Source: Rhodothermia bacterium (GTDB lineage Bacteria > Bacteroidota > Rhodothermia > Rhodothermales > UBA2364). From it: 64,000 nucleotides of DNA. Positions within the stretch are counted from its first letter, which is position 1. Every line of letters begins with the position of its first letter. The stretch lies in contig JAFLBZ010000014.1 of assembly GCA_017303715.1 (NCBI GenBank), positions 3,708 through 67,707 of the forward strand, given 5' to 3'. A model generated the notes under the pieces. That model searched no databases. It was given only the letters and a program-made list of their open reading frames with translations, and had not been told where the DNA came from. Of this stretch, positions 9,846 through 52,879 are shown piece after piece. The translations under genes were made by a program, and so were the position numbers.

Positions 9846-11657
9846 ATGGAAAAAAAAGAAGCACCAAAAGACATTATTGCAAAAGAAATATTTGAGGCTG
9901 TATCTCTTGATGGACTAAAGGCTTTTTATGAAAGCTTTATTGTCCCATTTATAACATCCGATTCTGGGAAAAAATTTCGAGAAAATAATTCTTTTTTACT
10001 TAAAAAGATTAGCCTTAGCAGTAAAAAAACAATTGCAGAAATAATTGGAACGATTTTTGGAGATCAGGAATACTTTTCGCAATTCTACCATTTTTCGCCA
10101 AAGGATTTACAAACAATAATTTATCAACTCGTTTGGTTTAATGCTCAATATATTAAACATTTAGAAGCCAAATTTTCATTTAAAATAAGTGTAAATGAAA
10201 AAAGAATGTTTTATGCAAAAATACAAGATAAATATCTTTTTTTTTCCGATAAAAATCATCATCAATATTCAGGTAGCTACTACTTTCTTCAGCTCAAAAA
10301 AGGTATTAGGGCTGTTTTGCAGGAGTGGTTTAGGGAACTCTTACCTAATAAACTACAAGGCCATACCGAAGCGGAATTTACTGATTGTTTAGAAAAACAC
10401 AATATGGAAAGAGAGGGGCAGGCACTTTCGCAAATTACAACTTTGGTAACATACTTTAATGAATGTAAAATCAATAGAACGGCAGCCGGTAAAATTTCAG
10501 CTTCAACACTAAAAGAACTTAAAAAAGTAGGTAATATACAAGAATTATATCCATCCGAAAAAGGGGCACTTGGTCTTGCAATGACCAACTTAATCGCCAA
10601 CTTTTTCTCCTTGTTAACACTAAACAACAGCCTAAGTAACCCTTTGGTATTGACTAAATATATCGTAGATTCTTGGATGTTTATCCGTGACGATCTCATC
10701 CAAAGTATTTACTTACCTTATGTGACTCGATCTTATCATTCTAATAAATCCAGCAATTTAATTACCGAATATATATTTAACTCTATACAAGAATTAAATA
10801 AAGACACATGGTATTCGATAAAAGAATTTACGAACTATATTTATTTTACGAACCAAAATTTCTTTAATTATATAGACTCCTTTTATATTTTAAATATTCA
10901 ATTAATACAAAAGAATAATAATAAGAATGAATTTGATCATTATCTATCGGATGTTCGGCCACATCAAGTGATTGACATACTTGCAACACCAATAATAAAG
11001 AATTTCTTTGCGATAATGGCGACATTAGGTTTAGTAGAACTTGTCTATTCCAAGCCAAACAACCAAGATTTTCGCATAAAAGGACAAGAATATTTGAGTG
11101 TTTTTGATGGTCTTCAATATGTTCGGTTAACGGATTTGGGATTGTTTATTTTGGGCAAAACAAAAGACTATGAATATAAAAAAGAAATTGTTTTATCGGA
11201 AAAAGTCACTATTGAGTTAGACCCCAATTTTTTATTAATAAGCCTTTCCAAGCCTGATGTCGTAAAAGAAGCCCTCTTGCGTAGGTTTGCTGAAAAAGCT
11301 ACCTCGTGCCGTTTTAAGGTGAGTTTTCGGAGTTTTCTTAAACAATGCAGTACACCAGAAGATGTAAAAGCACAGGTAAAGGAATTTGAGAAAAGCGTTG
11401 CGCCCGCCGCCGAGTGGCCACCGAATTGGCAAGCCTTCATGGAGAAGGTGCAACAAAAATTGCGCCCTATCCGGCTCATACCCAATTATCTGGTGTTTAA
11501 GTTGGAAGATGATCCAGAATTGTTACAGGTTTTCCAGAGCGATCCGGTGCTTTCAAAGTTGATTTTGCGTGCTGAAGGGCGGCATATTTTGGTAGAACAA
11601 AGCCGCACTTCCGAATTGAAAGGCCGTTTGGGGCTTTTGGGCTACATCATGCCATAA
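9846..11657 (+). CDS. hypothetical protein; markedly AT-rich for its first ~1.4 kb, with a C-terminal ~130 aa faintly resembling XPB-N-terminal/helicase-associated domains
   Basis: 603-aa uninterrupted ORF, 61 nt after the SNF2 gene and 16 nt before the nuclease gene. I recognised no catalytic motif. The domain resemblance is from memory and weak. Confidence 0.55.
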   Translation: MEKKEAPKDIIAKEIFEAVSLDGLKAFYESFIVPFITSDSGKKFRENNSFLLKKISLSSKKTIAEIIGTIFGDQEYFSQFYHFSPKDLQTIIYQLVWFNAQYIKHLEAKFSFKISVNEKRMFYAKIQDKYLFFSDKNHHQYSGSYYFLQLKKGIRAVLQEWFRELLPNKLQGHTEAEFTDCLEKHNMEREGQALSQITTLVTYFNECKINRTAAGKISASTLKELKKVGNIQELYPSEKGALGLAMTNLIANFFSLLTLNNSLSNPLVLTKYIVDSWMFIRDDLIQSIYLPYVTRSYHSNKSSNLITEYIFNSIQELNKDTWYSIKEFTNYIYFTNQNFFNYIDSFYILNIQLIQKNNNKNEFDHYLSDVRPHQVIDILATPIIKNFFAIMATLGLVELVYSKPNNQDFRIKGQEYLSVFDGLQYVRLTDLGLFILGKTKDYEYKKEIVLSEKVTIELDPNFLLISLSKPDVVKEALLRRFAEKATSCRFKVSFRSFLKQCSTPEDVKAQVKEFEKSVAPAAEWPPNWQAFMEKVQQKLRPIRLIPNYLVFKLEDDPELLQVFQSDPVLSKLILRAEGRHILVEQSRTSELKGRLGLLGYIMP

Positions 11658-11673
11658 CTTTTGCATTGTATTT

Positions 11674-13395
11674 GTGTCACTTTTAGCCAACCATACCTTT
11701 GTTGTATTTGATACCGAAACGACGGGAATGAAGCCCGACGAAGACCGAGTTATTGAGATCGGGGCGGTCAAATTGGTCAATGGCGAGGAAGTGGCTCGCT
11801 TTTCGCAACTCATTAATCCGGGACGCTTTATCCCGAAGTTCATTACCGAGATCACAGGCATAAGTACGGCAATGTTGGTGGATCAGCCGCCACCAGAAGT
11901 GGTGTTGATGGATTTTTTGGCCTTTGCCGGAGATGCCGTATTGGTAGCGCACAACTTGTCTTTTGATGATGGCTTTATCTCGGCGGAGTTGGAGCGGGCG
12001 GAATTACCTGCTTTGGAGCATAAAAAATTATGTACGCTACGCCTTGCCCGTAGGTTGTTGCCGCGCCTGCCTTCGCGGGGTTTAAAAAACCTCGCAAATC
12101 ATTTTGGGATCCGGATTGTGCGGCATCACTGTGCGACAGCCGATGCGGAAGCCACCGCAAAAATCTTTGTCCAACTTGTGCGGTCGTTAGAAACCGAATT
12201 TCACGTCGCCACCATAGACGATGCGGTACGATTCCAATACAAATCCTATGCACAAACGAAGGGCGAACCGAAGCACATATCGGGTATCCGCGAAAAAATC
12301 CTGCCTCAAATCCCAGAGTTACCGGGCGTGTACCGGATGTATGATCGTTCTAAACGGTTAATCTATGTTGGAAAGGCCAGAAGGCTACGGGATCGGGTCA
12401 CTTCGTATTTCCGTGCCATCGAGAACCACCCCAAAAAAACGCAAAATTTGGTACGTGAAGTCCGCGACATCAAATGGGATGTGCTTCCATCCGAGTTAGA
12501 CGCCTTATTGATGGAGTCTAAGCTGATCAAACAGCACTTGCCGAAGTTTAATCGGGCATTGGTTCGGTACAAAAATGCACCATTTCTTTGTCTAAACAGC
12601 CACCTTGCCTTCCCGACGATTGGTTGGAAGTATGTGGTCCAAAACGACGGGGCAGAGTATTTTGGGCCACTTGCCAACCGAGAACAAGCGGAGCAAACAA
12701 TGGAATGGATCAACCATTTGTTTCGCCTAAGAGAATGTGACGAGGTTACGTTTAGCCGCAGACAGGTTTGTATCTACCACGAAATGGGTCGCTGCGAAGG
12801 ACCTTGTGCCAAGCCAGACGCCGCACGAGTTTATCCGGAACATGTGCAAATGGTACGTAACTTTTTGCTGGGCGAGAACGAGAGCGTCCGGCTGACCCTT
12901 GAACATAAAATGAAAAAAGCCGCGTCCACCTTGGCCTTCGAGGAGGCACGCGGATATCGGGATCAGTTGCAAATGTTCGATCGGATTCTGCAGGGGAGAA
13001 AACACATGGCGGCTCCGGTGCGGGAACACAATGGCGCTTTTGTCTTGTGGGAAGACCGTGCATTGTTGGTACATCTCGTCCGTTTTGGGAAAAAGGCAGA
13101 AACCCTAAGGTTTAGTGCGGAGGGGTGGCCAACCGAGCAGGTTCAAAATTTACTTGCTGCGGTTGTGGCCGATCATTTTTCGGAAGATCGTGTACCACCG
13201 GAACGTTATGGTCAAAAAGAGGTGGACGAAATCCGTATTTTGGCGCATTGGATGTACTGTAATCGTGGGCGATTTCATCAAATTCCCTTTACACGCGGGA
13301 TGTCTTTGTCCGATTTTCTCTTGCGTATCCGTGAAGTTCTGGAGCAAGTAAGAACGGCTCCCGCGCTTCCACCAACTGATTTTTCATCGAAGTAA
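11674..13395 (+). CDS. DEDDh 3'-5' exonuclease (DnaQ/epsilon-like) fused to a GIY-YIG/UvrC-N-terminal (Cho-like) nuclease
   Basis: Exo motifs VFDTETTGM, AHNLSFD and HHCATADAEATAK. GIY-YIG region GVYRMYD...LIYVGKARRLRDRVTSYF. UvrC-type Cys segment CIYHEMGRCEGPC. Confidence 0.85.
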   Translation: MSLLANHTFVVFDTETTGMKPDEDRVIEIGAVKLVNGEEVARFSQLINPGRFIPKFITEITGISTAMLVDQPPPEVVLMDFLAFAGDAVLVAHNLSFDDGFISAELERAELPALEHKKLCTLRLARRLLPRLPSRGLKNLANHFGIRIVRHHCATADAEATAKIFVQLVRSLETEFHVATIDDAVRFQYKSYAQTKGEPKHISGIREKILPQIPELPGVYRMYDRSKRLIYVGKARRLRDRVTSYFRAIENHPKKTQNLVREVRDIKWDVLPSELDALLMESKLIKQHLPKFNRALVRYKNAPFLCLNSHLAFPTIGWKYVVQNDGAEYFGPLANREQAEQTMEWINHLFRLRECDEVTFSRRQVCIYHEMGRCEGPCAKPDAARVYPEHVQMVRNFLLGENESVRLTLEHKMKKAASTLAFEEARGYRDQLQMFDRILQGRKHMAAPVREHNGAFVLWEDRALLVHLVRFGKKAETLRFSAEGWPTEQVQNLLAAVVADHFSEDRVPPERYGQKEVDEIRILAHWMYCNRGRFHQIPFTRGMSLSDFLLRIREVLEQVRTAPALPPTDFSSK

Positions 13396-14474: not shown

Positions 14475-15851
14475 ATGTCCATTTTTTCCAGTAAAAACGT
14501 TAGCCGACTAACGCTTGTGGCGGCACTTGGCTATTTTGTGGATGTTTATGACCTCCTGTTGTTTAATGTCATTAAGGGTGATAGTCTAAAAGACCTTGGG
14601 CTTGCGGGTATCGAGAACGAGGCCGCTTTGCTCAACTTCCAAATGTTCGGGATGTTGTTAGGCGGCATCATGTGGGGGATTTTGGGAGATAAAAAAGGAC
14701 GTGTAACGGTACTTTTCGGCTCTATACTCACCTATTCAATTGCTAATTTGGCCAATGCTTTTGTGGTCGGGTTTTGGGATTATGCCTTGTGGCGGTTTAT
14801 TGCCGGATTCGGGTTGGCGGGCGAGTTGGGGGCTGGCGTGACCTTGGTTTCCGAGACCATGGAGAAGGAGAAACGAGGGATTGGGACGATGATTATCGTT
14901 TCTTTTGGCGTTTTGGGCGCTGTTGTGGCCGTTTTAGTGCATGAGGCGCTTGGATGGCAAAATGCCTTTATCGTGGGCGGGGTCATGGGACTTGCCTTGT
15001 TACTTCTACGAGCGGGCGCTTTAGAGTCTGGCATGTTTGAAGGGATCAAAAAATCCGACGCCGTAAATCGAGGAGACTTTTTTCACCTCATCACACAAGA
15101 TAAAACCATCCGTAGGATTTGGGAGGTCTTGTTACCTGTTTCGTTGCTTGCGTTCGTGCTAAGTTTTCTGTTGCCCGCATACAGCACCTTGTACCGCACC
15201 ATTTTTGGCATCTTAGGTATTGGTATTGTGGTGCAAATGGTACGAGATGCACGCTTCCGAAAATATATGTATTGTATTTTATTGGGGATGCCCATTTGGT
15301 TCGTTATTGGGATTTTGGTCTCCTTCTCCAATCGTTTTGCGGTGGTAACAGGGGTTACGGGAGATATTTTAGTGCCTACAGCCGTTGCCTTCTGCTATTT
15401 AGGACTCTCGATGGGGGATTTTGCTTCCGGTTTATTGAGCCAAAAACTCCGTAGCCGCAAAAAAGCTATTTTAGCCTTTTTGGGATTAATGACTGTCGTA
15501 GTGCTGGCCTTTTTGTTCTTGCGTGGCCTTAGCCCGACGGTTTATTACACGCTTTGTTTTCTATTGGGTTTTTCAGCGGGATATTGGGCAATTTTCGTCC
15601 AAAATGCCTCCGAGCAATTCGGAACCAACTTGCGCTCTACGGTTACGAACACCGTGCCCAATTTCGTAAGAGGGGGCTTGGTGGCCATGTCGGCGGCGTT
15701 TTTGGCACTCATCCCCAATCCTAAAGTGCCGGATATGTACTTTATCCACTCGGCGCTTATTGTGGGGGGCGTGGTGATTATAATTGCCTTGTTCTCAACG
15801 TGGGCTATTCAGGAAACTTTCTCGAAAGACTTGGACTACGTGGAGGAATAA
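14475..15851 (+). CDS. MFS transporter
   Basis: 458 aa with about 12 hydrophobic segments. GDKKGR motif in the loop 2-3 position. Confidence 0.8.
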   Translation: MSIFSSKNVSRLTLVAALGYFVDVYDLLLFNVIKGDSLKDLGLAGIENEAALLNFQMFGMLLGGIMWGILGDKKGRVTVLFGSILTYSIANLANAFVVGFWDYALWRFIAGFGLAGELGAGVTLVSETMEKEKRGIGTMIIVSFGVLGAVVAVLVHEALGWQNAFIVGGVMGLALLLLRAGALESGMFEGIKKSDAVNRGDFFHLITQDKTIRRIWEVLLPVSLLAFVLSFLLPAYSTLYRTIFGILGIGIVVQMVRDARFRKYMYCILLGMPIWFVIGILVSFSNRFAVVTGVTGDILVPTAVAFCYLGLSMGDFASGLLSQKLRSRKKAILAFLGLMTVVVLAFLFLRGLSPTVYYTLCFLLGFSAGYWAIFVQNASEQFGTNLRSTVTNTVPNFVRGGLVAMSAAFLALIPNPKVPDMYFIHSALIVGGVVIIIALFSTWAIQETFSKDLDYVEE

Positions 15852-16006: not shown

Positions 16007-17242
16007 ATGGCTTTCAAGATTGAACAACAAAAGGTAGCAAGGCGAATTACCCTTGTAGCAGCACTGGGGTATTTTGTGGATGTCTTTGATATTGTTTTGT
16101 TTAACATCGTTAAAACGGATAGCCTGCGCGATCTTAGGGTGCTGCCGGAGCATATGCTGGTGTACGAAGTGGGGTTGCTAAATTGGCAATTGGGTGGCAT
16201 GTTGGTCGGTGGCCTGATGTGGGGAATTTGGGGCGATAAAAAAGGGCGGCTTTCGGTATTGTTTGGCTCCATCATTACCTATTCATTGGCCAATATCTTT
16301 AATGCGTTTATTACCGATGTGGCTTGGTATGCGCCGTTGCGGTTTTTGGCTGGTGTGGGCTTGGCCGGCGAACTCGGAGCGGGTGTAACCTTGGTGGCCG
16401 AAACAATGGAACGGGAAAAAAGAGGCATCGGAACCATGATGATTACCGCTGTTGGGGTTTTGGGGGCGGTTTGTGCGGCTTTGGTGGGTAAGATAATGCA
16501 CTGGCAAACGGCTTATCTCATTGGCGGGTTTATGGGGCTGGCCTTGCTGTTCTTGCGGGCAGGAACCTTGGAGTCCGAGATGTTTGAGCGACTGCTGTAC
16601 AATCCCGACATCAAAAAAGGCAGTTTATGGCTTATTCTTAGGGATAAACAAAGGCTGCTGCGGTATGTTTGGGTGGTGATGATTGGCTTGCCCGTGTGGT
16701 TTTTGGGTGGAATTGTGGTTCCACAAGCCCACCGATTTGGGGAGGCTTTGGGGGTTACAGGGCCAATTTTCGTGAATGATGCTGTGATTGTTTTTTATTT
16801 GGGCATTGCCTTAGGTGATTTGCTAAGTGGTGGCCTAAGCCAGTGGTTTAAGAGTCGGAAAAAAGTTCTCATTGGGTTCCATGTGGTTTCCTTTCCGTTA
16901 TACACCTTGCTTTTTGCAACATTCGGGTTATCCCCTACGCTTTTTTATATGGTCTTGTTTTTATTGGGTGTAACGTGTGGTTTTTGGGCGGTTTTTATCT
17001 CGATGGCCGCCGAGCAATTCGGAACCAATATCCGCTCTACCGTCACGAATACCGTTCCCAATGTAGTGCGCGGTCTTACCATTCCCATGACTGGCGTCTT
17101 TTTGTGGGTCTTGCCCATCGTACATGGAAGTATGGTGCTGGCTGCGGCTTGGGTGGGCTATGGAGTCTTGGCGATCGCTTTGGTGGCAACCCTACAAGTG
17201 GAAGAAACGTTCTCCAAAGACCTTAACTATGTTGAGAAGTGA
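16007..17242 (+). CDS. MFS transporter (paralogue of the upstream gene)
   Basis: 411 aa. Near-identical stretches to the neighbour (LVAALGYFVDV.D..LFN, GDKKGR, AEQFGTNLRSTVTNTVPN, ETFSKDL.YVE). Confidence 0.8.
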   Translation: MAFKIEQQKVARRITLVAALGYFVDVFDIVLFNIVKTDSLRDLRVLPEHMLVYEVGLLNWQLGGMLVGGLMWGIWGDKKGRLSVLFGSIITYSLANIFNAFITDVAWYAPLRFLAGVGLAGELGAGVTLVAETMEREKRGIGTMMITAVGVLGAVCAALVGKIMHWQTAYLIGGFMGLALLFLRAGTLESEMFERLLYNPDIKKGSLWLILRDKQRLLRYVWVVMIGLPVWFLGGIVVPQAHRFGEALGVTGPIFVNDAVIVFYLGIALGDLLSGGLSQWFKSRKKVLIGFHVVSFPLYTLLFATFGLSPTLFYMVLFLLGVTCGFWAVFISMAAEQFGTNIRSTVTNTVPNVVRGLTIPMTGVFLWVLPIVHGSMVLAAAWVGYGVLAIALVATLQVEETFSKDLNYVEK

Positions 17243-17384
17243 GGACAAGTCGGCGGTCTTCACATCTGGCAAGCAACTCGGTTGCAAAATGGATTTTAAA
17301 TTGTTGTTTTAAAACGATCTCTACGGGGCGGGGTTGCACGCAAGGCTAAAAGCAATAGCTTGCCAGAGACGAGAAGTAAAGCGA

Positions 17385-18183
17385 TTAACTCCGTCCTTCA
17401 GGGCGGAGGCATCAAGCAAGAACTACGCATAATGCGATATTAACTCCGTCCTTCAGGGCGGAGCAGTAGGCCCGGAAATAGCCTTGGGCTTTAGCCCTGA
17501 ACGGTGGTAAAAGGCGAATGCCGTGCGCTGGAAACGGTTTTCTACGAAGATGTCACCCCTACGGGGCTTTTCTTTTCGTTTGATGTCGGCTTTCTACGAA
17601 GATGCCACCCCTACGGGGCTTTTCTTTTCGTTTGATGTCGGGTTTCTACGAAGATGTCACTCGCTGGGGCTGGGTTGTGCGTTATCATGGCTAAAGCCGG
17701 AAGGGGTGGCCGTTGCACACAGCCCCACGCTGAAGCATGGGGTTAATATGAAGCCGGAGAACAGGGGACAACGTTGCTCGTCTGAATGTGGACGTAAAGC
17801 AAGCAAAAACAATGATTAACGAAACAGCAATGTCGTCCTTCAGGGCGGGGTAGTAGGCTCCGAAATAGCCTTGGGCTTTAGCCCTGAACGATCCCCAACA
17901 TGTATGCCGTGCGCTGGGAATGGTTTTCTACGAAGATGTCACCCCTACGGGGCTGGGCTTTGCGTTTGATGTCGGCTTTCTACGAAGATGCCACCCCTAC
18001 GGGGCTTTTCTTTTCGTTTGGAATGGTTTTCTACGAAGATGCCACCCCTACGGGGCTTTTCTGTTCGTTTGGAATGGCTTTCTACGAAGATGCCATCTCG
18101 CTGGGGCTGGGTTGTGCGTTATCATGGCTAAAGCCGGAAGGGGTGGCCGTTGCACACAGCCCCACGCTGAAGCATGGGGTTAA
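17385..18183 (+). repeat. mosaic hairpin-repeat array A (two tandem composite elements holding 3 and 4 copies of a ~52-bp unit)
   Basis: Core unit tttctacgaagatg[c/t]cacccctacggggcttttcttttcgtttgatgtcggc starts near 17538, 17591, 17643, 17924, 17977, 18027 and 18079. Each composite is preceded by the hairpin ctccgtccttcagggcggag plus agtaggc.cggaaatagccttgggctttagccctgaacg. Each ends with catggctaaagccggaaggggtggccgttgcacacagccccacgctgaagcatggggttaa. Confidence 0.9.
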
Positions 18184-18391
18184 AACAATGCCAGCAACTT
18201 TTTGAACTCGGCGGCCATGCAAAATGGCAGCCATACAAAATTTATGCAACCCACCACAGGCGACAATCTGGTTAACCCATAACACCCTTTATTTTTTAAA
18301 AAGTCTTGCAAATGAGACCATAAACCCATACCATTGCATGGTATATTACAAGATAAAAATGGCAAGGCATACCTTTTAAAAAATCCATTCT

Positions 18392-20290
18392 ATGAATCGG
18401 GAAGAGATATTTGTTGAAAACAAACGGCGGAATACAGAAGCACTGCCGTTGGGAACCATTCTTTGTGGACGCTACGAGGTGGGGCGTGTCTTAGGGCGCG
18501 GCGGTTTTGGCGTTACTTATCTCGCATGGGATCAACGCTATGAGGTTGAGGTGGCCATCAAAGAATTTTTCCCCAGTCCGAACGAAACCGGAATAGACCG
18601 CAAGGTGCAAAATGGACAAATCTTACCGGATTTAGACGTCCCCAATCGGAATATCCGTTTGGAAAATGGCCAAGTGGAACCCTTCTCGCGTCTGTTTGCA
18701 CGGGAAGTGGCAAATTTTCAGGCAGAGGCCAAGAAAATGGTCGGATTCCGGAAAATAGCCAATATCGCAACCGTAATAGACGACTTTACCGCACACAATA
18801 CCGCCTATTATGTGATGGAGTTCTACAAAGGGGAAACCCTGTGGGACGTTTGGGAAAAGGCAGATATGCAGCCTTGGTCTTTAAATAACGTGCTCAAGGT
18901 GTTGTTTCCCATGATAAAGGCACTCGAAAAAGTTCATGCAAAAGGACTGGTACACCGAGACTTTAAGCCACAAAACGTCTTGATTTGCAACGATGAGGAA
19001 GACGAAGTGGTTTTGATTGATTTTGGTCTGGCCAAGGCATTGGGCAATAGTGGCCTGATTAGTACCAAGGGGGAATTGGGAACGCCCTTGTATGCACCCT
19101 ATGAACAGCAAAGCCGGATACACAACCATGGGCCATATAGCGATGTCTATAGTGTTGCAGCCACATTTTACCAACTGTTAACCGGGGAACTGCCCAGTCT
19201 ATCGAAAGACCGCGAAGAATACGGGCGAGCGGGATATACCGACCCAATGGTCTTCCCCGAAAAAGGACTACCCAAGGGGCTAAAAAAAGTCTTGGATAAA
19301 GCCATTGCCATTTATCCAAATGACCGCTACCCAACCATGCAGGCATTTCGTGAAGCCATTGAAAATTGCCTTGGCGCCAGCGAAGAACGCTTTTTGAAGG
19401 ACATCAAAGAAGTGCTTGCCAAACCTATTGCCCCACCAAAGCCTATTGTCCCGCCCGCCAAACCCGCGCCAGAACACCGCCCGCTACAGGCCGGAGACCG
19501 CATGGTACACACCTTGGGTGGCGTAACTTTTGCCTTCCGATATTGCCCACCGACAGCAACACCCTTTATGATGGGGGATGCAACATGGGACGACGCAAAA
19601 CCCCACAAGGTACAACTGACCAAGGGTTTTTGGATGGCCGAGACCCCGATTACACAAGAGCAGTTTGCCATATTTGTACATGAGAAGAAATACCAAACAC
19701 AGGCCGAACGAGAGGGTGGTGCTTGGATATGGAATGGAAGTGAGTTCATTAAAGACCCTAAAGCAGAATGGCGAACGGTATATCCCGGTCCCAAACGCCC
19801 AGTGGTAGCGGTCTCTTGGAACGATGTAAATGCTTTTTGTGACTGGCTCTCGGAGCGATTGGGGGTGGAAGCGGCATTACCCACCGAGGCGCAGTGGGAG
19901 TATGCAGCGCGTGCAGGGGGCAAGGGAATGTATGGGCTTAACCACAAAAAACAAGAAATCACAGAAGCAACTCTCGCAGAAGTGGCTTGGTTTGGAAAAT
20001 CACTTGAAATAGGGACCAACGAGGTTGGGAAACTAAACCCCAATGCGTTTGCCTTGTATGATATGCTGGGCAATGTTTGGGAATGGTGTAGGGATGTATT
20101 TGACTCTGATTTTTATCAAGACAATCAAAAAGATCCTGTAAGTTTAACAAAAAATTCATCTGACCGTGTTGTTCGTGGGGCTTCGTTTAACGACTACTGG
20201 CGATACTTGCGTGTTGGGTTTCGTAGCCTCAGCTTCGATAATTTCAGGAACGATAAGCTCGGATTTCGCCCCCAATACATTAAGATTTGA
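18392..20290 (+). CDS. Ser/Thr protein kinase fused to an FGE-sulfatase (SUMF1-like, C-type-lectin fold) domain; DGR target protein
   Basis: 632 aa. Kinase motifs GRGGFGVTY, VAIKEF, HRDFKPQNVL, DFGLAK. Pro-rich linker KPIAPPKPIVPPAKPAP. FGE-type motifs SWNDVNAFCDWL, LPTEAQWEYAARAG, GNVWEWCRD. No TM segment seen. The last ~45 codons are the VR. Confidence 0.9.
   Translation: MNREEIFVENKRRNTEALPLGTILCGRYEVGRVLGRGGFGVTYLAWDQRYEVEVAIKEFFPSPNETGIDRKVQNGQILPDLDVPNRNIRLENGQVEPFSRLFAREVANFQAEAKKMVGFRKIANIATVIDDFTAHNTAYYVMEFYKGETLWDVWEKADMQPWSLNNVLKVLFPMIKALEKVHAKGLVHRDFKPQNVLICNDEEDEVVLIDFGLAKALGNSGLISTKGELGTPLYAPYEQQSRIHNHGPYSDVYSVAATFYQLLTGELPSLSKDREEYGRAGYTDPMVFPEKGLPKGLKKVLDKAIAIYPNDRYPTMQAFREAIENCLGASEERFLKDIKEVLAKPIAPPKPIVPPAKPAPEHRPLQAGDRMVHTLGGVTFAFRYCPPTATPFMMGDATWDDAKPHKVQLTKGFWMAETPITQEQFAIFVHEKKYQTQAEREGGAWIWNGSEFIKDPKAEWRTVYPGPKRPVVAVSWNDVNAFCDWLSERLGVEAALPTEAQWEYAARAGGKGMYGLNHKKQEITEATLAEVAWFGKSLEIGTNEVGKLNPNAFALYDMLGNVWEWCRDVFDSDFYQDNQKDPVSLTKNSSDRVVRGASFNDYWRYLRVGFRSLSFDNFRNDKLGFRPQYIKI
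20156..20279 (+). repeat. DGR variable repeat (VR)
   Basis: 124 bp collinear with 22116-22239. All mismatches correspond to A in the template copy. The core boundary 20162-20279 is firm. The first 6 bp are less certain. Confidence 0.9.
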
Positions 20291-20300
20291 CAATTTTACT

Positions 20301-20326
20301 TTTTTAAAATTTATAAATTTTAAAAA
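20301..20326. repeat. perfect 26-bp A/T palindrome immediately downstream of the VR and target stop codon
   Basis: tttttaaaatttataaattttaaaaa is its own reverse complement. It lies 11 nt after the stop at 20290. Confidence 0.85.
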
Positions 20327-20357
20327 TTTTTTACATTTTTCCAAATGTTAAATTCTT

Positions 20358-20714
20358 ATGAATCCGAATACTCAACCCGTTGTTATTCTTACGAAGTGGT
20401 ACGACTTTGTGTTTTGGATGACACAGAAGGTGCAGCATTACCCTAAGTCCTATAAATATACGCTGGGAGACCGGATTCAAACGCAAATGTTAGACATCTT
20501 GGAAATGTTTGTTGTTGCCCAATACAATAAGGAACAACGAAAACAAACCCTACGACACATCAATATTGCGATCGAAAGACTGCGATATTTAATTAGGTTG
20601 TCAAAAGACCTTCATTGTTTATCAATGGCACACTATGAGTTTGCCGCAAAGCAAATGTTGGAATTAGGAAAAATGGTTGGAGGTTGGGAAAAGCAATATG
20701 CCACGACAATTTAG
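20358..20714 (+). CDS. avd: Avd-like four-helix-bundle protein (DGR accessory variability determinant)
   Basis: 118 aa. Helical and basic, with the pattern W..F..W......PK..KYTLGDRI......IL typical of the four-helix-bundle/Avd family. Sits between the VR and the RT and overlaps the RT start. Confidence 0.8.
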   Translation: MNPNTQPVVILTKWYDFVFWMTQKVQHYPKSYKYTLGDRIQTQMLDILEMFVVAQYNKEQRKQTLRHINIAIERLRYLIRLSKDLHCLSMAHYEFAAKQMLELGKMVGGWEKQYATTI

Positions 20715-22099
20715 CAATTTGTATCCTGATATATGTACTTTTGAAAATCTATGGAAAGCGTTTCGTTATGCTCGGCGTGGGAAGCGTCATAAGCTCGAAG
20801 TCTCGATGTTTGAGCAAGACTTAGAGCGACATCTTTTCGAGATTCAGGAGGCATTAATCTCGCATAATTTCCATTTTCAAGGTTATCGTTCGTTCATCAT
20901 TACAGATCCTAAGGAGCGAGTTATTTCTGCTGCCCCCTTTCGGGATCGGGTTGTACATCATGCCATTTGCAATGTATTGGCTCCTTTAATGGATATGGCT
21001 CTTTTGGAGAATGTATATGCCTGCCGAACGGGTAAGGGTACCCATTTGGCCATTAAAAAAGCTGTGTCCTAAAAGGATTTTAATGCTTAAACGTGCGTTA
21101 TGGGTTAATGAAGTGGAAGCCTACAAAAGCCATTCCCTGCCTCAAGAGCGTCATGTAAGAACTCATGGGATTGCATAAATTCCGGTTTTACAAGGGTTTG
21201 TTCTACTTTTTAATGAGCGGTAAAGCCCCGTAGGGGTGATATCTTACTAGAAATCGGTTTCCAAATGCACAACAAAGCCCCGTAGGGGTGACATCTTTAC
21301 ATGACGAGGAAAAGCTGGTTGATCGTACCAAAGCCATCAATGTTGGCAGAGTCAGCCGAAATCCGGTGGCTGATCTATCCGACTGATTTTTCTAAGGGTC
21401 GCCCTGCCATTATTGGACAACACATCATACTATAAGATAGAGGCGATCACAATAACGAAGCTGTCTAATAGGTTTTTAGATGATCAGGTAATGGGTTTGA
21501 TCTCGAAGTTATTAGCAACATACCATTCCGATATATCCTACTATTTTCGTTTCCCGCAGGATAATTTGTTTGATGCGGCACGTCCAAGAGGATTGCCCAT
21601 TGGAAACTTAACCAGCCAATGGTTTGCAAATTTTTATCTCAATTCTATTGACCGCTTGATTAAGCAAAAGTTGAAATTACCCGGTTACGTCCGCTATATG
21701 GATGATTTTGTCCTATTTGCGGATTCTAAAGAAGACCTTTTTCATGCACAAGAAGAGGTAAAAAAAGCATTGAGTTTACTTAGGCTCCAACTTAATGATA
21801 AAAAAACGCAGATATTTCCAGTGAAAAATGGATTTCCCTTTTTGGGGCTTTACTTACGGCAAGATCGCCTACGTATTTTAAGAAATAACCTCAAGAGCAT
21901 AAAGCAAAGGCTTAGGCATCAAGCAAAAAAAATGCGAAGAGATCAAAATCTACAGCATGTAACACAATCTCTTCAAGCATGGACTGGATATTATGGACGG
22001 AAGCAGTTTCAATACATCTTCGATGAAATTCTTTCTAAACAGAGTTTTTACCGCGATGATTTAAAACAATGCTTCACCTTCACCTTAACTTATGGCTAA
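20698..22099 (+). pseudogene. DGR reverse transcriptase, reading frame interrupted (two ORF pieces, 20677/20698-21072 and 21413-22099)
   Basis: The N-terminal piece has FENLWKAFRYARRGKR, ISAAPFRDRVVHHAICNVL and ACRTGKGTH. The C-terminal piece has RGLPIGNLTSQWFANFYL (DGR-type motif 4) and YVRYMDDFVLF (YMDD). The pieces are in different frames and are separated by 340 nt containing stop codons and repeat units. Confidence 0.8.
21073..21300 (-). mobile_element. insertion within the RT gene carrying two inverted copies of the dispersed hairpin repeat (MITE-like)
   Basis: aaagccccgtaggggtgatatctt (21222-21245) and aaagccccgtaggggtgacatctt (21274-21297) are reverse complements of the array core aagatg.cacccctacggggcttt. 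The spacer ctagaaatcggtttccaaatg resembles the reverse complement of the array spacer. The RT N-terminal frame reopens at 21292. The exact ends are not determined. Confidence 0.55.
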
Positions 22100-22115
22100 A
22101 GGGATTTACCGATAG

Positions 22116-22239
22116 AAATCTAACCGTGTTGTTCGTGGGGCTTCGTTTAACAACAACAAGCAAAACTTGCGTGTTGGGTATCGTAACAACAACAACGATA
22201 ATAACAGGAACAATAAACTCGGATTTCGCCCCCAATACA
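22116..22239 (+). repeat. DGR template repeat (TR)
   Basis: Non-coding copy of the VR, 17 nt after the RT stop. It is adenine-rich with AAC-type codons in the VR frame (caacaacaagcaaaac, aacaacaacaacgataataac). Homology ends at 22240 (C versus T in the VR). Confidence 0.9.
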
Positions 22240-22337
22240 CAAAACATAAATCTCTCCTAACGGTTTGTGCTATGTGTGGTGTGTGTTTTGTCGCTTACGG
22301 GTTACAAAAGTGAGCCATTGTTGTATAGGTAAATTCC

Positions 22338-22370
22338 TGCTTCGACGAAAGTCGAGGCAAAGTTCTTTTT
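22338..22370 (+). terminator. GAAA-tetraloop hairpin plus T-run downstream of the TR (terminator or DGR RNA 3' structure)
   Basis: tgcttcgac-gaaa-gtcgaggca gives a 9-bp stem with one G-T, followed by aagttcttttt. Confidence 0.5.
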
Positions 22371-22416
22371 GGCCCTTATCCTTCGAGATCGGGGCCATTT
22401 TTTAATCCCCAATCGT

Positions 22417-23322
22417 ATGCCGCAGCAAAACCAAGATCAACGTCCCCAAGTATCTGCCCTTGTGTCTGCCCTTTTGCAAGCAATGGAATCCGGCCAAGAA
22501 GTCTATATTGCCAATCTCAAGGCAGTGGTTCCACATTGTTTTAGGATCCATATGCACCATGAAGCCTACGACCAGATGCGCCCCCACTTCACACATTTTA
22601 AGGTTATTGCGATGCAAGAGCTTGATAAGCGTTTAGAGGCTTTGAAAAAACAAGGCATCGGTGATTTTTGGGCTAAAATATGGCGTTTGATACGGGGTGT
22701 TGTCCTCAAACAGCCTTTACCGAAATTGGAAATCTCGACATTGGGGCGATGGGAAATAGAGGTGATTCAGGCATTTGACCTTGATTTGCCGATGGGGTAT
22801 TTGCGCGTGGAGGCTGGTTTTTCCTCGATTGGTAAGCCCAGCTCCCTTTCCGAATCGGTGTTTATGGGCGCTCAAACCAAAGGATTGTCTTTTATGGTAC
22901 AGGGAGATCAAGCCCTAAAAACGGCTCCCTTGGCTGGCGGCATGGCCGCAACAAGTCCATCACCACAAACCGAAGAAGATGTTTTTGCTACCTTGTCTTG
23001 GATGAACCCAGCCACCCAGTCCGAGCAACAATTTCACATCAAAACGCCCTACTTGGCCATTGGGCGGGAAGGTGCATCGGATGCGGAGTACGCACATCTG
23101 CCCGTCCTCCGGCTTTCGGGTGTTCCTGCGGAAATCTCAAGGGTACATGGCTATTTTCAGTATAAGGCCACAGAAGGCACGTTCCGCTTTAAAAACTTGG
23201 GACTACATGGCACAACCATCCTGCCACCCGCCAGAGAAACGGAGGACGGATGGGCGATTCTTGCCCCTAATTGTAGATTGTGTTTAGGAAATAAGTTGTT
23301 TGTGGATTTTGCTCAACGATGA
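22417..23322 (+). CDS. FhaA-like protein: DUF3662-like N-terminal region plus a C-terminal FHA domain
   Basis: The ORF track starts at 22369 (TTG). The ATG at 22417 (MPQQNQ) is preferred. The N-terminal part has VPHCFRIHMHHEAYDQM, resembling the DUF3662 VPN.F.V.LS..DY motif. The C-terminus has FHA-like YLAIGREGASD...ISRVHGYFQY...FRFKNLGLHGTTI. Confidence 0.65.
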   Translation: MPQQNQDQRPQVSALVSALLQAMESGQEVYIANLKAVVPHCFRIHMHHEAYDQMRPHFTHFKVIAMQELDKRLEALKKQGIGDFWAKIWRLIRGVVLKQPLPKLEISTLGRWEIEVIQAFDLDLPMGYLRVEAGFSSIGKPSSLSESVFMGAQTKGLSFMVQGDQALKTAPLAGGMAATSPSPQTEEDVFATLSWMNPATQSEQQFHIKTPYLAIGREGASDAEYAHLPVLRLSGVPAEISRVHGYFQYKATEGTFRFKNLGLHGTTILPPARETEDGWAILAPNCRLCLGNKLFVDFAQR

Positions 23323-23399
23323 AGGGGGATTTTTGCAGGGTTTTAGGACTTTGTTGGGTTGTGATGAGGTTGGTGGTTGGCTTGGGCTATGCACCGCTT

Positions 23400-23885
23400 A
23401 TTACCCGTCGTAGGAAGATGCCACCCCGCTGGGGCTTTTCTTTGTACCGGGAATGGTTTTCTACGAAGATGCCACCCCTACGGGGCTTTCCTTTTCGTTT
23501 GATGTCGGCTTTCTACGAAGATGTCACCCCTACGGGGCTGGGCTTTGCGTTTGATGTCGGCTTTCTACGAAGATGCCACCCCTACGGGGCTTTTCTTTTC
23601 GTTTGATGTCGGCTTTCTACGAAGATGCCACCCCTACGGGGCTTTTCTTTTCGTTTGATGTCGGCTTTCTACGAAGATGTCGCTCGCTGGGGCTGGGTTG
23701 TGCGTTTGATGTCGGGTTTCTACGAAGATGCCATCTCGCTGGGGCTGTGCTTGGTCATGGCTAAAGCCGGAAGGGGTGGCCGTTGCACACAGCCCCACGC
23801 TGAAGCATGGGGTTAATATGAAGCCGGAGAACAGGGGACAACGTTGCTCGTCTGAATGTGGGCATAAAGCAAGCAAAAACAAATC
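23400..23885 (+). repeat. mosaic hairpin-repeat array B (7 copies of the ~52-bp unit plus the same terminal module)
   Basis: Units start near 23409, 23457, 23510, 23562, 23614, 23666 and 23717. The terminal module catggctaaagccggaaggggtggccgttgcacacagccccacgctgaagcatggggttaatatgaagccggagaacaggggacaacgttgctcgtctgaatgtgg is nearly identical to 17688-17800. Confidence 0.9.
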
Positions 23886-24033
23886 CAAATGCCACATTAA
23901 CGCCGTCCGTTTATATGAAAAGTACATCAGGAAATTAACGGTACAAAGTGTCCCGTAAACCACTCTAATCGGCGGACATACCGATGATGCACATAGTTTT
24001 GAGGAAATTAAATAGGGATTAGGTGATTTTATT

Positions 24034-24067
24034 CAAAAAACAAGGCTCCCCAAAACTTTGAGAAGCC
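24034..24067 (-). terminator. terminator candidate after the VKOR-DsbA gene
   Basis: On the minus strand, ggcttctc / ggggagcc forms a stem (two G-T pairs) followed by ttgttttttg. Confidence 0.4.
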
Positions 24068-24091
24068 CAAATGGTTTGCCTGAAAAAGCCC

Positions 24092-25387
24092 TTATTTTTT
24101 TACAGCTGCACGGCTCAACTCTTCACGGACAATCCGGCGGAGGACATCTAAGTTCCCCCATTGATCCACCAAGCGGCCATTTACGTAAACGGAAGGCGTA
24201 CTGTTAACACCCGCTTCTTTCCCGCGTTCAATATCGGCCTGAACAAGTTGTGTGGTTGCTTGGTTGGACATACACGCATTAAAGGTATTGGCGTCTAAGC
24301 CCAAATTTTGGACTTCTCGTGCAAGGACAGATTCGCCCAAGACTTCTTGGTTGTCGAATAGTGCCTTGTGCATTTCCCAGCCTTTACCTGCATTGGCGGC
24401 ACAGAAGAAGGCTTTGGCTGAGGGGCCAGCAAACGAGTGGATTTGGCTTTGTAGATTGGGGTTGATGGTATTGTCTAAGGGGTAATTCTGAAAGCGGAAA
24501 CTTACATATTTCCCAAATTCGGAGACAATAGACTCAATGCGGTCACGAGCCACCTTGCAGGCAGGGCATTGGAAGTCTGCAAATTCTACAATAGTGACTT
24601 TGGCATCCTTGTTGCCTTTTACCAATGTATTTGGGGCAAAGGAAACAGGGAGCGGTTCTTGTTTAAAGTGTTGTTGAACAGCCCGCAAAACAGCGGCTTC
24701 CGAGTTGGTATCTGCGGCATTTGCTTGCTCTTGTTTCCGTTGGTAATTGCTGAAGTACAAAAACGAAAATCCGTAAACAAATAAGGTGAGTACTATGGGC
24801 GTAACGACTGCGGGTTGATAGGAAAAGTTGGTTGTGTTACGCCGAATTGCACCAAAGAAACCGGAAAAATACGCTCCTAAACCTTCTGTTCTGACGAGGG
24901 AGAGGATCAAAAAGACCAGAATAGCGCCATTTATGACGTACATCCCAATACAAAGTGGGCAAGCAATGCCCATTTGCATCAACTGTGTGGCCTTGAACAT
25001 GGAAAACAACACGGCCAGCAAAGAAAGTATAATGCCCACCACAACAGCCGAAGCGCCTTTTTCCTTTTTGTTGAAAAGGGCGATGATGGTCAGCACCAAA
25101 ATGCTAAAATAGAACGCTGCTCCCCAAGCCGCGACAGGAATGCCCAGCATATAAGCACTTTCTGAAGCATAGACCGGCTCGCAAGTGATCCATTCATTCA
25201 CCGTACACCCCAGTGAGCGCGTCAGACGATTTTCTATTCCGAGGGTGATAAAGGTGGCGTCGAGGGCAACATAAATTCCGGCAACTACCGCTGCAAGTAC
25301 AGCCCAAAGCGCCCAAGCCTTGAGCAGCGGTTCCGTTACGGGGATGCGTTTGTGGCCACCTTGTGTTTTCTGAACTGTTTTTGACAT
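24092..25387 (-). CDS. vitamin K epoxide reductase (VKOR) domain fused to a DsbA/thioredoxin-like domain
   Basis: 431 aa. The N-terminal polytopic region has loop cysteines (CTVNEWITC) and an in-helix CPLC. The C-terminal Trx-fold has FADFQCPACK and the usual GVNSTPSVYVNG. Confidence 0.85.
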   Translation of the reverse strand: MSKTVQKTQGGHKRIPVTEPLLKAWALWAVLAAVVAGIYVALDATFITLGIENRLTRSLGCTVNEWITCEPVYASESAYMLGIPVAAWGAAFYFSILVLTIIALFNKKEKGASAVVVGIILSLLAVLFSMFKATQLMQMGIACPLCIGMYVINGAILVFLILSLVRTEGLGAYFSGFFGAIRRNTTNFSYQPAVVTPIVLTLFVYGFSFLYFSNYQRKQEQANAADTNSEAAVLRAVQQHFKQEPLPVSFAPNTLVKGNKDAKVTIVEFADFQCPACKVARDRIESIVSEFGKYVSFRFQNYPLDNTINPNLQSQIHSFAGPSAKAFFCAANAGKGWEMHKALFDNQEVLGESVLAREVQNLGLDANTFNACMSNQATTQLVQADIERGKEAGVNSTPSVYVNGRLVDQWGNLDVLRRIVREELSRAAVKK

Positions 25388-52753: not shown

Positions 52754-52879
52754 ATTTTACCTGACCTCTAAATGATTTTACCTGACCTCTAAATGATTTT
52801 ACCTGACCTCTAAATGATTTTACCTGACCTCTAAATGATTTTACCTGACCTCTAAATGATTTTACCTGACCTCTAAATG
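52754..52879. repeat. perfect tandem repeat, 6 x 21 bp (attttacctgacctctaaatg)
   Basis: Counted directly. Units start at 52754, 52775, 52796, 52817, 52838 and 52859 with no mismatches. The array lies about 80-230 nt upstream of the minus-strand operon start. Confidence 0.95.

Follow-up and report, generated by a model that had tools for sequence, protein, structure and literature searches.

A diversity-generating retroelement target of the kinase–lectin type is paired with a diverged FhaA-type protein in Rhodothermia: a probable two-gene phospho-signalling module

Kinases joined to C-type lectin (CLec) domains are the commonest class of diversity-generating retroelement (DGR) targets in cyanobacteria (PMC7517822), and they were listed by Wu et al. 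2018 as class 'b12' (PMC5758913). The cyanobacterial proteins (Vallota-Eastman et al. 2020, PMC7517822) have a Hanks kinase at the N-terminus and, at the C-terminus, a CLec/FGE domain that carries the variable repeat (VR). They are cytoplasmic signalling proteins, include DGR-internal and remote targets, and are served by Avd-type cassettes; published hypotheses on their signalling go no further than a possible autoinhibitory or substrate-selecting role of the CLec domain (PMC7517822). Here we describe a related locus in a 64-kb stretch of DNA from a Rhodothermia bacterium (the whole stretch is called the window, and coordinates are positions within it). Although DGR-diversified kinases have been catalogued since 2017-2020, to our knowledge nothing is known about their downstream signalling. 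The locus comprises a kinase–lectin gene that is the DGR target, the Avd accessory gene, the reverse transcriptase (RT) gene, the template repeat (TR) and a further gene, here called gene X, whose product we read as a strongly diverged FhaA-type protein. We conclude that it is probably a two-gene phospho-signalling module of Rhodothermia, kinase–lectin gene plus X, in which the sensor is rewritten by the DGR (probability of about 0.6). The locus resembles the cyanobacterial ones in all the traits named above, with the location of the protein predicted. It differs from them in its host (Rhodothermota), in the conserved FhaA-type neighbour, in an RT that is disrupted in the window, and in having a single target per locus in place of the large paralogue families of the cyanobacterial kinase-CLec targets.

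The word FHA is absent from the main texts of PMC7517822, PMC5758913, PMC8144416 and PMC10907252, and the one mention of FHA in PMC7159879 is as an effector domain found sporadically in vWA-MoxR systems. Within the openly accessible DGR literature (subscription-only papers were outside the search) we found no prior dedicated FhaA-type partner for a DGR-diversified kinase. A first-pass annotation of the window, made from the sequence alone, had stated that kinase-CLec targets were known in cyanobacteria and that a dedicated FHA partner within the cassette of a Bacteroidota-like genome was not known to be described; both statements agree with these sources. In Mycobacterium tuberculosis, FhaA is a substrate of the kinase PknB and binds phosphothreonine. 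Gene X and FhaA (Rv0020c) have in common an FhaA_N domain (PF12401, formerly DUF3662), a disordered linker, a C-terminal FHA domain and a Hanks kinase as genomic partner. However, X is far diverged and lacks the operon context of PP2C, FtsW/RodA, PBP and FhaB, and its kinase is predicted to be soluble and has a hypervariable lectin domain, whereas PknB has a membrane anchor and PASTA domains. FhaA-like genes of Rhodothermales (MFQ5570220.1, annotated 'FHA domain-containing protein', in locus L016, and that of locus L110) are from the same order-level taxon and are homologous over their full length, with E 2e-13 to the X profile; unlike X, they are recognised by Pfam and lie in kinase/PP2C operons with no DGR or lectin domain nearby. 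The domain pair of the kinase–lectin protein is found in NCBI 'bifunctional serine/threonine-protein kinase/formylglycine-generating enzyme family' proteins, but most sampled members have neither a DGR cassette nor an FhaA-type neighbour within 7 kb. An FGE-sulfatase domain is also carried by the 'Proteo1' family of serine/threonine kinases (bioRxiv 10.1101/2025.01.12.632604).

In the kinase–lectin protein, Pfam assigns residues 107-319 to the Pkinase domain (E 2e-31; 109.6 bits, cut-off 31.7) and residues 392-626 to the FGE-sulfatase domain (E 1e-49), and the linker, KPIAPPKPIVPPAKPAPEHRP, is Pro-rich. The Hanks motifs are complete (GRGGFG at 35-40, VAIK at 54-57, HRDFKPQN at 188-195, DFG at 210-212 and APY at 235), and residues K57, H188, D190, N195, D210, F211 and E238 are invariant across 31 kinase homologues, so that the kinase looks catalytically competent. 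Catalytic FGE, as known from the human enzyme, has a C-terminal cysteine pair, Cys336/Cys341, whereas residues 593-632 of the kinase–lectin protein (RVVRGASFNDYWRYLRVGFRSLSFDNFRNDKLGFRPQYIKI) contain no cysteine. The name FGE therefore stands here for a fold and not for an activity, and by analogy with other DGR targets we regard the domain as a lectin-like binder. The N-terminus is charged, and the highest 19-residue Kyte-Doolittle mean is 1.33, located in the DFG strand; this crude test indicates that there is neither a transmembrane helix nor a signal peptide, and the protein is most likely soluble and cytoplasmic. These results bear out the first-pass annotation, which had described a complete Hanks kinase, a Pro-rich linker and an FGE/CLec domain ending in the VR, with no signal peptide or transmembrane helix. 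The combination of the two domains is widespread, with at least 1200 homologues at E <= 1e-20 in many phyla. The VAIK lysine is followed by about 45 extra residues (residues ~58-106, window 18560-18710) before the Pfam match resumes at profile position 43; this insert is also kept in the 54% orthologue.

Gene X escaped the standard searches. Even at E = 10, no FHA or FhaA_N/DUF3662 domain was detected by Pfam or NCBIfam, PADLOC gave no match, and the sole entry in the direct scans was a chance-level DUF4689. Proteins of the X clade form about seven clusters among 5.8 billion proteins; five word-indexed homologues were recovered from that set, and an identical homologue is annotated 'hypothetical protein, Rhodothermia bacterium'. 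An exhaustive search of 1.84 billion representatives with the profile of the five homologues returned 45 proteins, many of them aligned end to end. Among the aligned sequences, 36 of 41 have a Pfam FHA domain and 31 of 41 have FhaA_N; X is about 22% identical to its detectable relatives. When the X clade alone was compared by hhalign with 36 distant relatives, the match reached 99.95% (E 8e-38, 277 columns) and covered both domains, with residues 3-135 of X aligned to the relatives' N-terminal region. The five-homologue profile had no matches among the PDB sequences; the broader 41-sequence (A3) profile was needed, and it matched PDB FHA domains at E 2e-6, including that of M. tuberculosis FhaA ('TB39.8', 3po8/2lc1). 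Given the alignment of 41 sequences, AlphaFold2 produced a model (pLDDT 83.7) with two folded domains, an FhaA_N-like one at residues ~8-135 and an FHA domain at ~190-300, separated by a low-confidence linker (~140-190). A single-sequence model was discarded as unusable (pLDDT 38). The top PDB matches of the model in Foldseek are the FHA domains of MDC1, Slr1951 and GarA (probability 1.0, TM-score 0.72-0.75). Taken together, the profile search, the hhalign match and the fold indicate that X is a strongly diverged FhaA-type protein with FhaA_N and FHA domains. The first-pass annotation had predicted a DUF3662-like N-terminus and an FHA C-terminus. The direct hidden Markov model (HMM) scans, set beforehand as the test by which this prediction could be refuted, were negative, and their outcome was overturned by the remote-homology methods.

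Residues G216, R217, S241 and H244 of X, the last two in the arrangement S241-R242-x-H244, are invariant across the 41 aligned sequences. The Gly-Arg and Ser-x-x-His residues are those that contact the phosphate in known FHA structures, the His having a structural role. It is plausible, but not certain, that X reads phosphothreonine. A separate observation concerns Thr154 (window 22876-22878), just 3' of the N-terminal domain in a G-x-x-T-x-R context, which is conserved in at least 90% of the 41 FhaA-like sequences and is a candidate phospho-acceptor.

Gene X adjoins an orthologous kinase–lectin gene in four lineages, which are all those with a readable context, and it does so in two gene orders. 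The order in the window is kinase-Avd-RT-TR-X, all on the + strand. The lineage at 83-86% (sample ERZ27233592) has the same order spread over two contigs (kinase and Avd-RT-TR-X), with the assembly breaking at the VR, and its flanking genes differ from those of the window on both sides. In the 63% lineage X precedes the kinase, 133 nucleotides (nt) apart. The 45% lineage (432-kb contig of ERZ926183) also has X followed by the kinase–lectin gene, at 57-117 nt, and the 10 kb to each side contain no Avd, RT or TR. A fifth lineage (54% kinase, 47% X) has its kinase and X on the ends of separate contigs, both ending in related repeats, an arrangement that is compatible with adjacency but does not prove it. 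The candidate X of this lineage is that of L108, the one new locus found in a metagenome scan with the X alignment; it is 47% identical to the window X and comes from a related sample series, its assignment to the 54% lineage being provisional.

Since the pairing is kept with different gene orders, with different flanks and without a nearby cassette, X is best understood as a partner of the kinase and not as a part of the retroelement. The linkage of the FHA gene to the kinase, whose absence from relatives would have counted against the first-pass annotation, is thus found in four lineages, whereas its placement of that partner inside the cassette did not hold, X being 5' of the kinase in two lineages. 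The idea that X is a DGR accessory factor for retrohoming, like Avd, HRDC or MSL, would fit the window and the 83% lineage, where X lies directly 3' of the TR and apparently within the cassette. It is hardly credible in view of the 45% and 63% lineages just described, of X homologues that reside in kinase/phosphatase operons without a retroelement, and of the lack of a nucleic-acid-binding domain in X. Nearly as improbable is that X is an unrelated neighbour: a terminator-like hairpin does separate it from the TR, as coincidental adjacency would allow, but adjacency is kept in four lineages (X identity 45-83%) in two orders with all other neighbours different, and X-clade proteins, which are extremely rare, lie beside this kinase family wherever the context can be read. 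Both possibilities were discarded on the comparative context.

The more distant relatives that Pfam does recognise, one of them from Rhodothermales, are found in classical operons with Pkinase, FhaA-like, PP2C, at times further kinases, FtsW/PBP and FHA genes. Proteins of this family therefore normally work with Hanks kinases, and X looks like a paralogue that was recruited to the kinase–lectin gene.

Over their 122 nt the VR and TR are 85% identical. All 18 mismatches are at TR adenines and 17 are at codon position 1 or 2, a textbook DGR signature that is not due to chance. Read in frame, the TR contains 11 AAC and 2 AAT codons, and by our own arithmetic these 13 AAY codons allow ~10^15 VR variants. 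The VR falls at the C-terminus of the FGE-sulfatase domain, and the Avd protein is recognised by PF22296 (bAvd, E 1e-21) and by NF033474 (DivGenRetAVD; 101.8 bits, cut-off 80). P0050, a 97%-identical kinase found in other samples, has 16 residue differences from that of the window, of which 10 are within residues 591-621; that is, 10 of ~31 residues differ in the VR and 6 of 588 elsewhere. This concentration indicates recent diversification in the species, the level at which VR variation was assessed. In the 45% lineage, two contigs from different samples (L008 and L010) show 100% identity across the 4.5 kb surrounding the gene, their 21 differences all lying in the 117-nt VR (12550-12666), so that with no cassette within 10 kb this kinase is a remote target under diversification. 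A TR was sought in the 20-kb loci of the lineages in which X precedes the kinase; none was found there, and the remote DGR was not located. A TR serving the L008 lineage would match 'CGTGTGTTRCGTGGTGGTTC...GGGTTTCGTCTCGCCAAG'. The VR 3' end and ~20 nt downstream of it (L008/L010 12550-12666; L001 12723-12892) are identical between the 45% and 63% lineages, although their proteins are only ~50% identical. The VR types differ as well, the 45% and 63% lineages having 'RVLRGGSW...GFRLAKTL' and the window 'RVVRGASF...GFRPQYIKI'.

Table 1. Features of the kinase–lectin/X locus and of the repeats around it.
Feature	Position in window	Strand	Basis
Left bracket: two ~52-nt tandem repeat arrays, each followed by a 167-nt unit	17413..18275		repeat search, TRF
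Kinase–lectin gene, DGR target, 632 residues	18392..20290	+	Pfam, catalytic motifs
VR, residues 589-630, C-terminal face of lectin domain	20158..20279	+	TR comparison
Avd accessory gene, 118 residues	20358..20714	+	PF22296, NF033474
RT N-terminal fragment; stop codon after '...GKGTHLAIKKAVS'	20698..21072	+	corresponds to residues 1-124 of the intact L018 RT
383-nt replacement segment inside RT	21070..21452		BLASTN against L018, alignment to L003
RT C-terminal fragment with YMDD box, frame different from N-terminal fragment	21453..22099	+	RVT_1; residues 141-364 of L018 RT
TR	22118..22239	+	repeat search; nearly identical to TR of L003 (83%-related lineage)
Nine-pair hairpin with GAAA loop and T-rich tail, between TR and X	22338..22359	+	terminator-like scan
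Gene X, diverged FhaA-type protein, 301 residues	22417..23322	+	remote homology, AlphaFold2 model
Right bracket: 52-nt repeat array and 167-nt unit	23402..23908		repeat search, TRF, motif matches

The RT of the window, a region of 20698-22099 that overlaps Avd by 17 nt (Table 1), is interrupted, a lesion absent from the first-pass annotation. A segment of 383 nt stands in for 76 nt of coding sequence, which encode 'KMKKHQWVLKMDIKKYFYTIDHEIL'; by analogy with other RTs, the lost motif 'KMKKHQWVLKMDIKKYFYTIDHEIL' would contain a catalytic Asp. The DGR thus lacks an intact RT, since the segment encoding 'VLKMDIKKYFYTIDH' is lost. Stop codons interrupt the replacement in every frame, the N- and C-terminal halves of the RT are out of frame with each other, and the C-terminal fragment still matches PF00078 (RVT_1) at E 2e-14. 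A sister contig, L018, whose DNA is 97-99% identical to the window, has an identical X and an intact RT of 364 residues, and in a BLASTN comparison the unaligned parts were L018 908-983 and window 21070-21452. Two contigs from other samples (L019 and L020), which begin exactly at 21070/21074, contain this 383-nt segment at 99.9-100% identity. These independent contigs, starting at the junction, rule out that the split is an assembly artefact. We therefore take the lesion to be a genuine allele, polymorphic within the population. The disrupted copy cannot diversify by itself, and unless it is served in trans by another RT, its VR is probably frozen in this strain.

The hairpin lies ~100 nt 3' of the TR and ~60 nt 5' of X, and is also conserved in L003, there with a GTAA loop (GNRA-type). 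It may form the 3' terminus of the DGR RNA or serve as a terminator. If it terminates the DGR RNA, X would have its own promoter in the window gene order. An Rfam scan of 17000-24500 at E <= 0.1 found no RNA family, and a sigma-70 promoter scan, a model ill-suited to this phylum, gave matches no more numerous than in shuffled sequence.

The repeats that bracket the module share a 52-nt unit. Its core, GCCCCGTAGGGGTGRCATC on the - strand, holds a small palindrome and has no Rfam match; the core motif has 12 matches in the 64-kb window, all of them around this module, against 0.01 expected. TRF gave a period of 51-52 for the arrays, which are located at 17.5-18.1 kb and 23.4-23.7 kb in the same direct orientation, and the 167-nt unit of the right bracket is 89% identical to the left copy. 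Two further 52-nt units (21222-21297) lie inside the RT lesion in the orientation opposite to that of the flanking arrays, that is, as inverted repeats. In the lineage with the 54% kinase, L022 has at 10067-10836, 3' of the kinase gene, a second FGE-domain fragment of the window type, which is truncated in its first VR codons ('VVRGGSF') by ten copies of a related ~52-nt repeat; the contig with the candidate X of that lineage, L108, starts in similar repeats (1-143). In two lineages, then, the module seems to be remodelled by one and the same repeat family.

Just 5' of the left array are two tandem paralogous genes for multi-pass membrane transporters (14475-15851 and 16007-17242), which by eye look like members of the major facilitator superfamily (MFS); the GC skew of this region is unusually high (0.16-0.19) and its AT skew is negative. 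Elsewhere in the window, 52754-52879 is a perfect tandem repeat with six copies of a 21-nt unit (ATTTTACCTGACCTCTAAATG) at 100% identity.

Onto the observed composition, VR/TR pattern, VR variation and kinase–X adjacency we place a mechanism drawn from FhaA/PknB and from FHA domains generally. The DGR (Avd, RT and TR) would swap the last ~40 codons of the lectin domain for adenine-mutagenised copies of the TR, through which the variable lectin face would gain an enormous ligand-binding repertoire. A ligand bound to this domain might then alter the activity of the kinase or its choice of substrate, and the kinase would phosphorylate a threonine of its own and/or of X. X would dock on that phosphothreonine through its FHA domain, and its FhaA_N domain would convey the output. 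We infer by analogy both that X reads or receives the phosphorylation by the kinase and what the output would be. The biological role of such a relay could be regulatory tuning or the recognition of invaders.

Several observations weigh against this model. Throughout the X clade the Asn-Gly loop of the FHA domain reads L263-H264-G265, with His264 in the place of the canonical Asn and Leu263 in that of the Thr/Ser; because of this Leu-His-Gly loop and of a divergence that hides the domain from Pfam, binding of phosphothreonine by X could be weakened or lost. In the kinase, an activation-loop Thr is not obviously conserved (by eye, Thr-Lys in the window versus Ser-Lys in P0053), and its cytoplasmic location is a prediction from the hydropathy scan. 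The T-tract hairpin between the TR and X makes co-transcription with X uncertain in the window order, and no PP2C phosphatase adjoins the kinase–X pair in any lineage. Among the matches listed in a scan for kinase-FGE contigs there were ~15 full-length loci from other phyla (close Rhodothermia relatives not being among them), and at none of them does an FhaA-type gene lie within 7 kb; an FHA protein of another kind is present at two and an RT at one. The kinase–X pairing is specific to one clade, and this clade is small.

The altered loop and the absence of a direct Pfam match would also be expected if X were a phospho-independent partner, such as an inhibitor, a scaffold or a pseudo-FHA protein, that binds the kinase or the lectin domain. 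We consider this unlikely: the Arg and Ser that would contact the phosphate, as well as the structural His, are invariant in the 41 sequences, X clade included, and the Asn position varies also in FHA relatives that Pfam does recognise (consensus D-x-S-x-x-G-T).

Another reading concerns the role of the module and is compatible with the phospho-relay set out above. The pair may be an intracellular immune or conflict sensor, in which the lectin domain would recognise molecules of phages or plasmids and the kinase and FHA adaptor would trigger a defence or abortive response. DGR-diversified FGE/CLec domains recur in predicted conflict systems (PMC7159879, PMC10907252). Among PADLOC profiles, PD-T4-6 (E 5e-50) and mad6 (E 8e-45) strongly match the kinase domain, as does, far below its cut-off, antiphage_MADS6 of NCBIfam (E 3e-39); however, these matches span only the generic kinase core, and, as stated above, PADLOC has no match for X. 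A neighbourhood that differs in every lineage, the bracketing repeats and an RT that is intact or broken within one population would suit such a sensor. On the other hand, neither the module nor its immediate neighbours contain a toxin/effector, NTPase, caspase or TIR domain, and the closest relatives of X reside in cell-wall growth operons. We hold the immune role to be possible, though tentative.

The phospho-signalling module can be extended one step further. The kinase–lectin and FhaA-like pair might constitute a self-contained, mobile intracellular pathway of a receptor kinase and its adaptor, with a recognition surface that a DGR, acting in cis or in trans, would generate somatically, and with variants fixed in individual lineages when the 52-nt repeats mediate the switching-off of the RT. 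This extension is speculative and, in our estimate, doubtful. If true, bacteria would have a counterpart to diversified antigen receptors, complete with its own phospho-adaptor, and a concrete downstream component would be in hand for a DGR-diversified kinase for the first time.

Partners of this sort are visible only to remote-homology tools, since standard annotation calls X 'hypothetical'. As a member of a family of Hanks-kinase substrates and phosphothreonine readers, X is a specific and testable candidate for the output of DGR-diversified kinases. The clade also supplies natural controls, with RT-intact and RT-broken alleles in one population and with cis-linked and remote targets.

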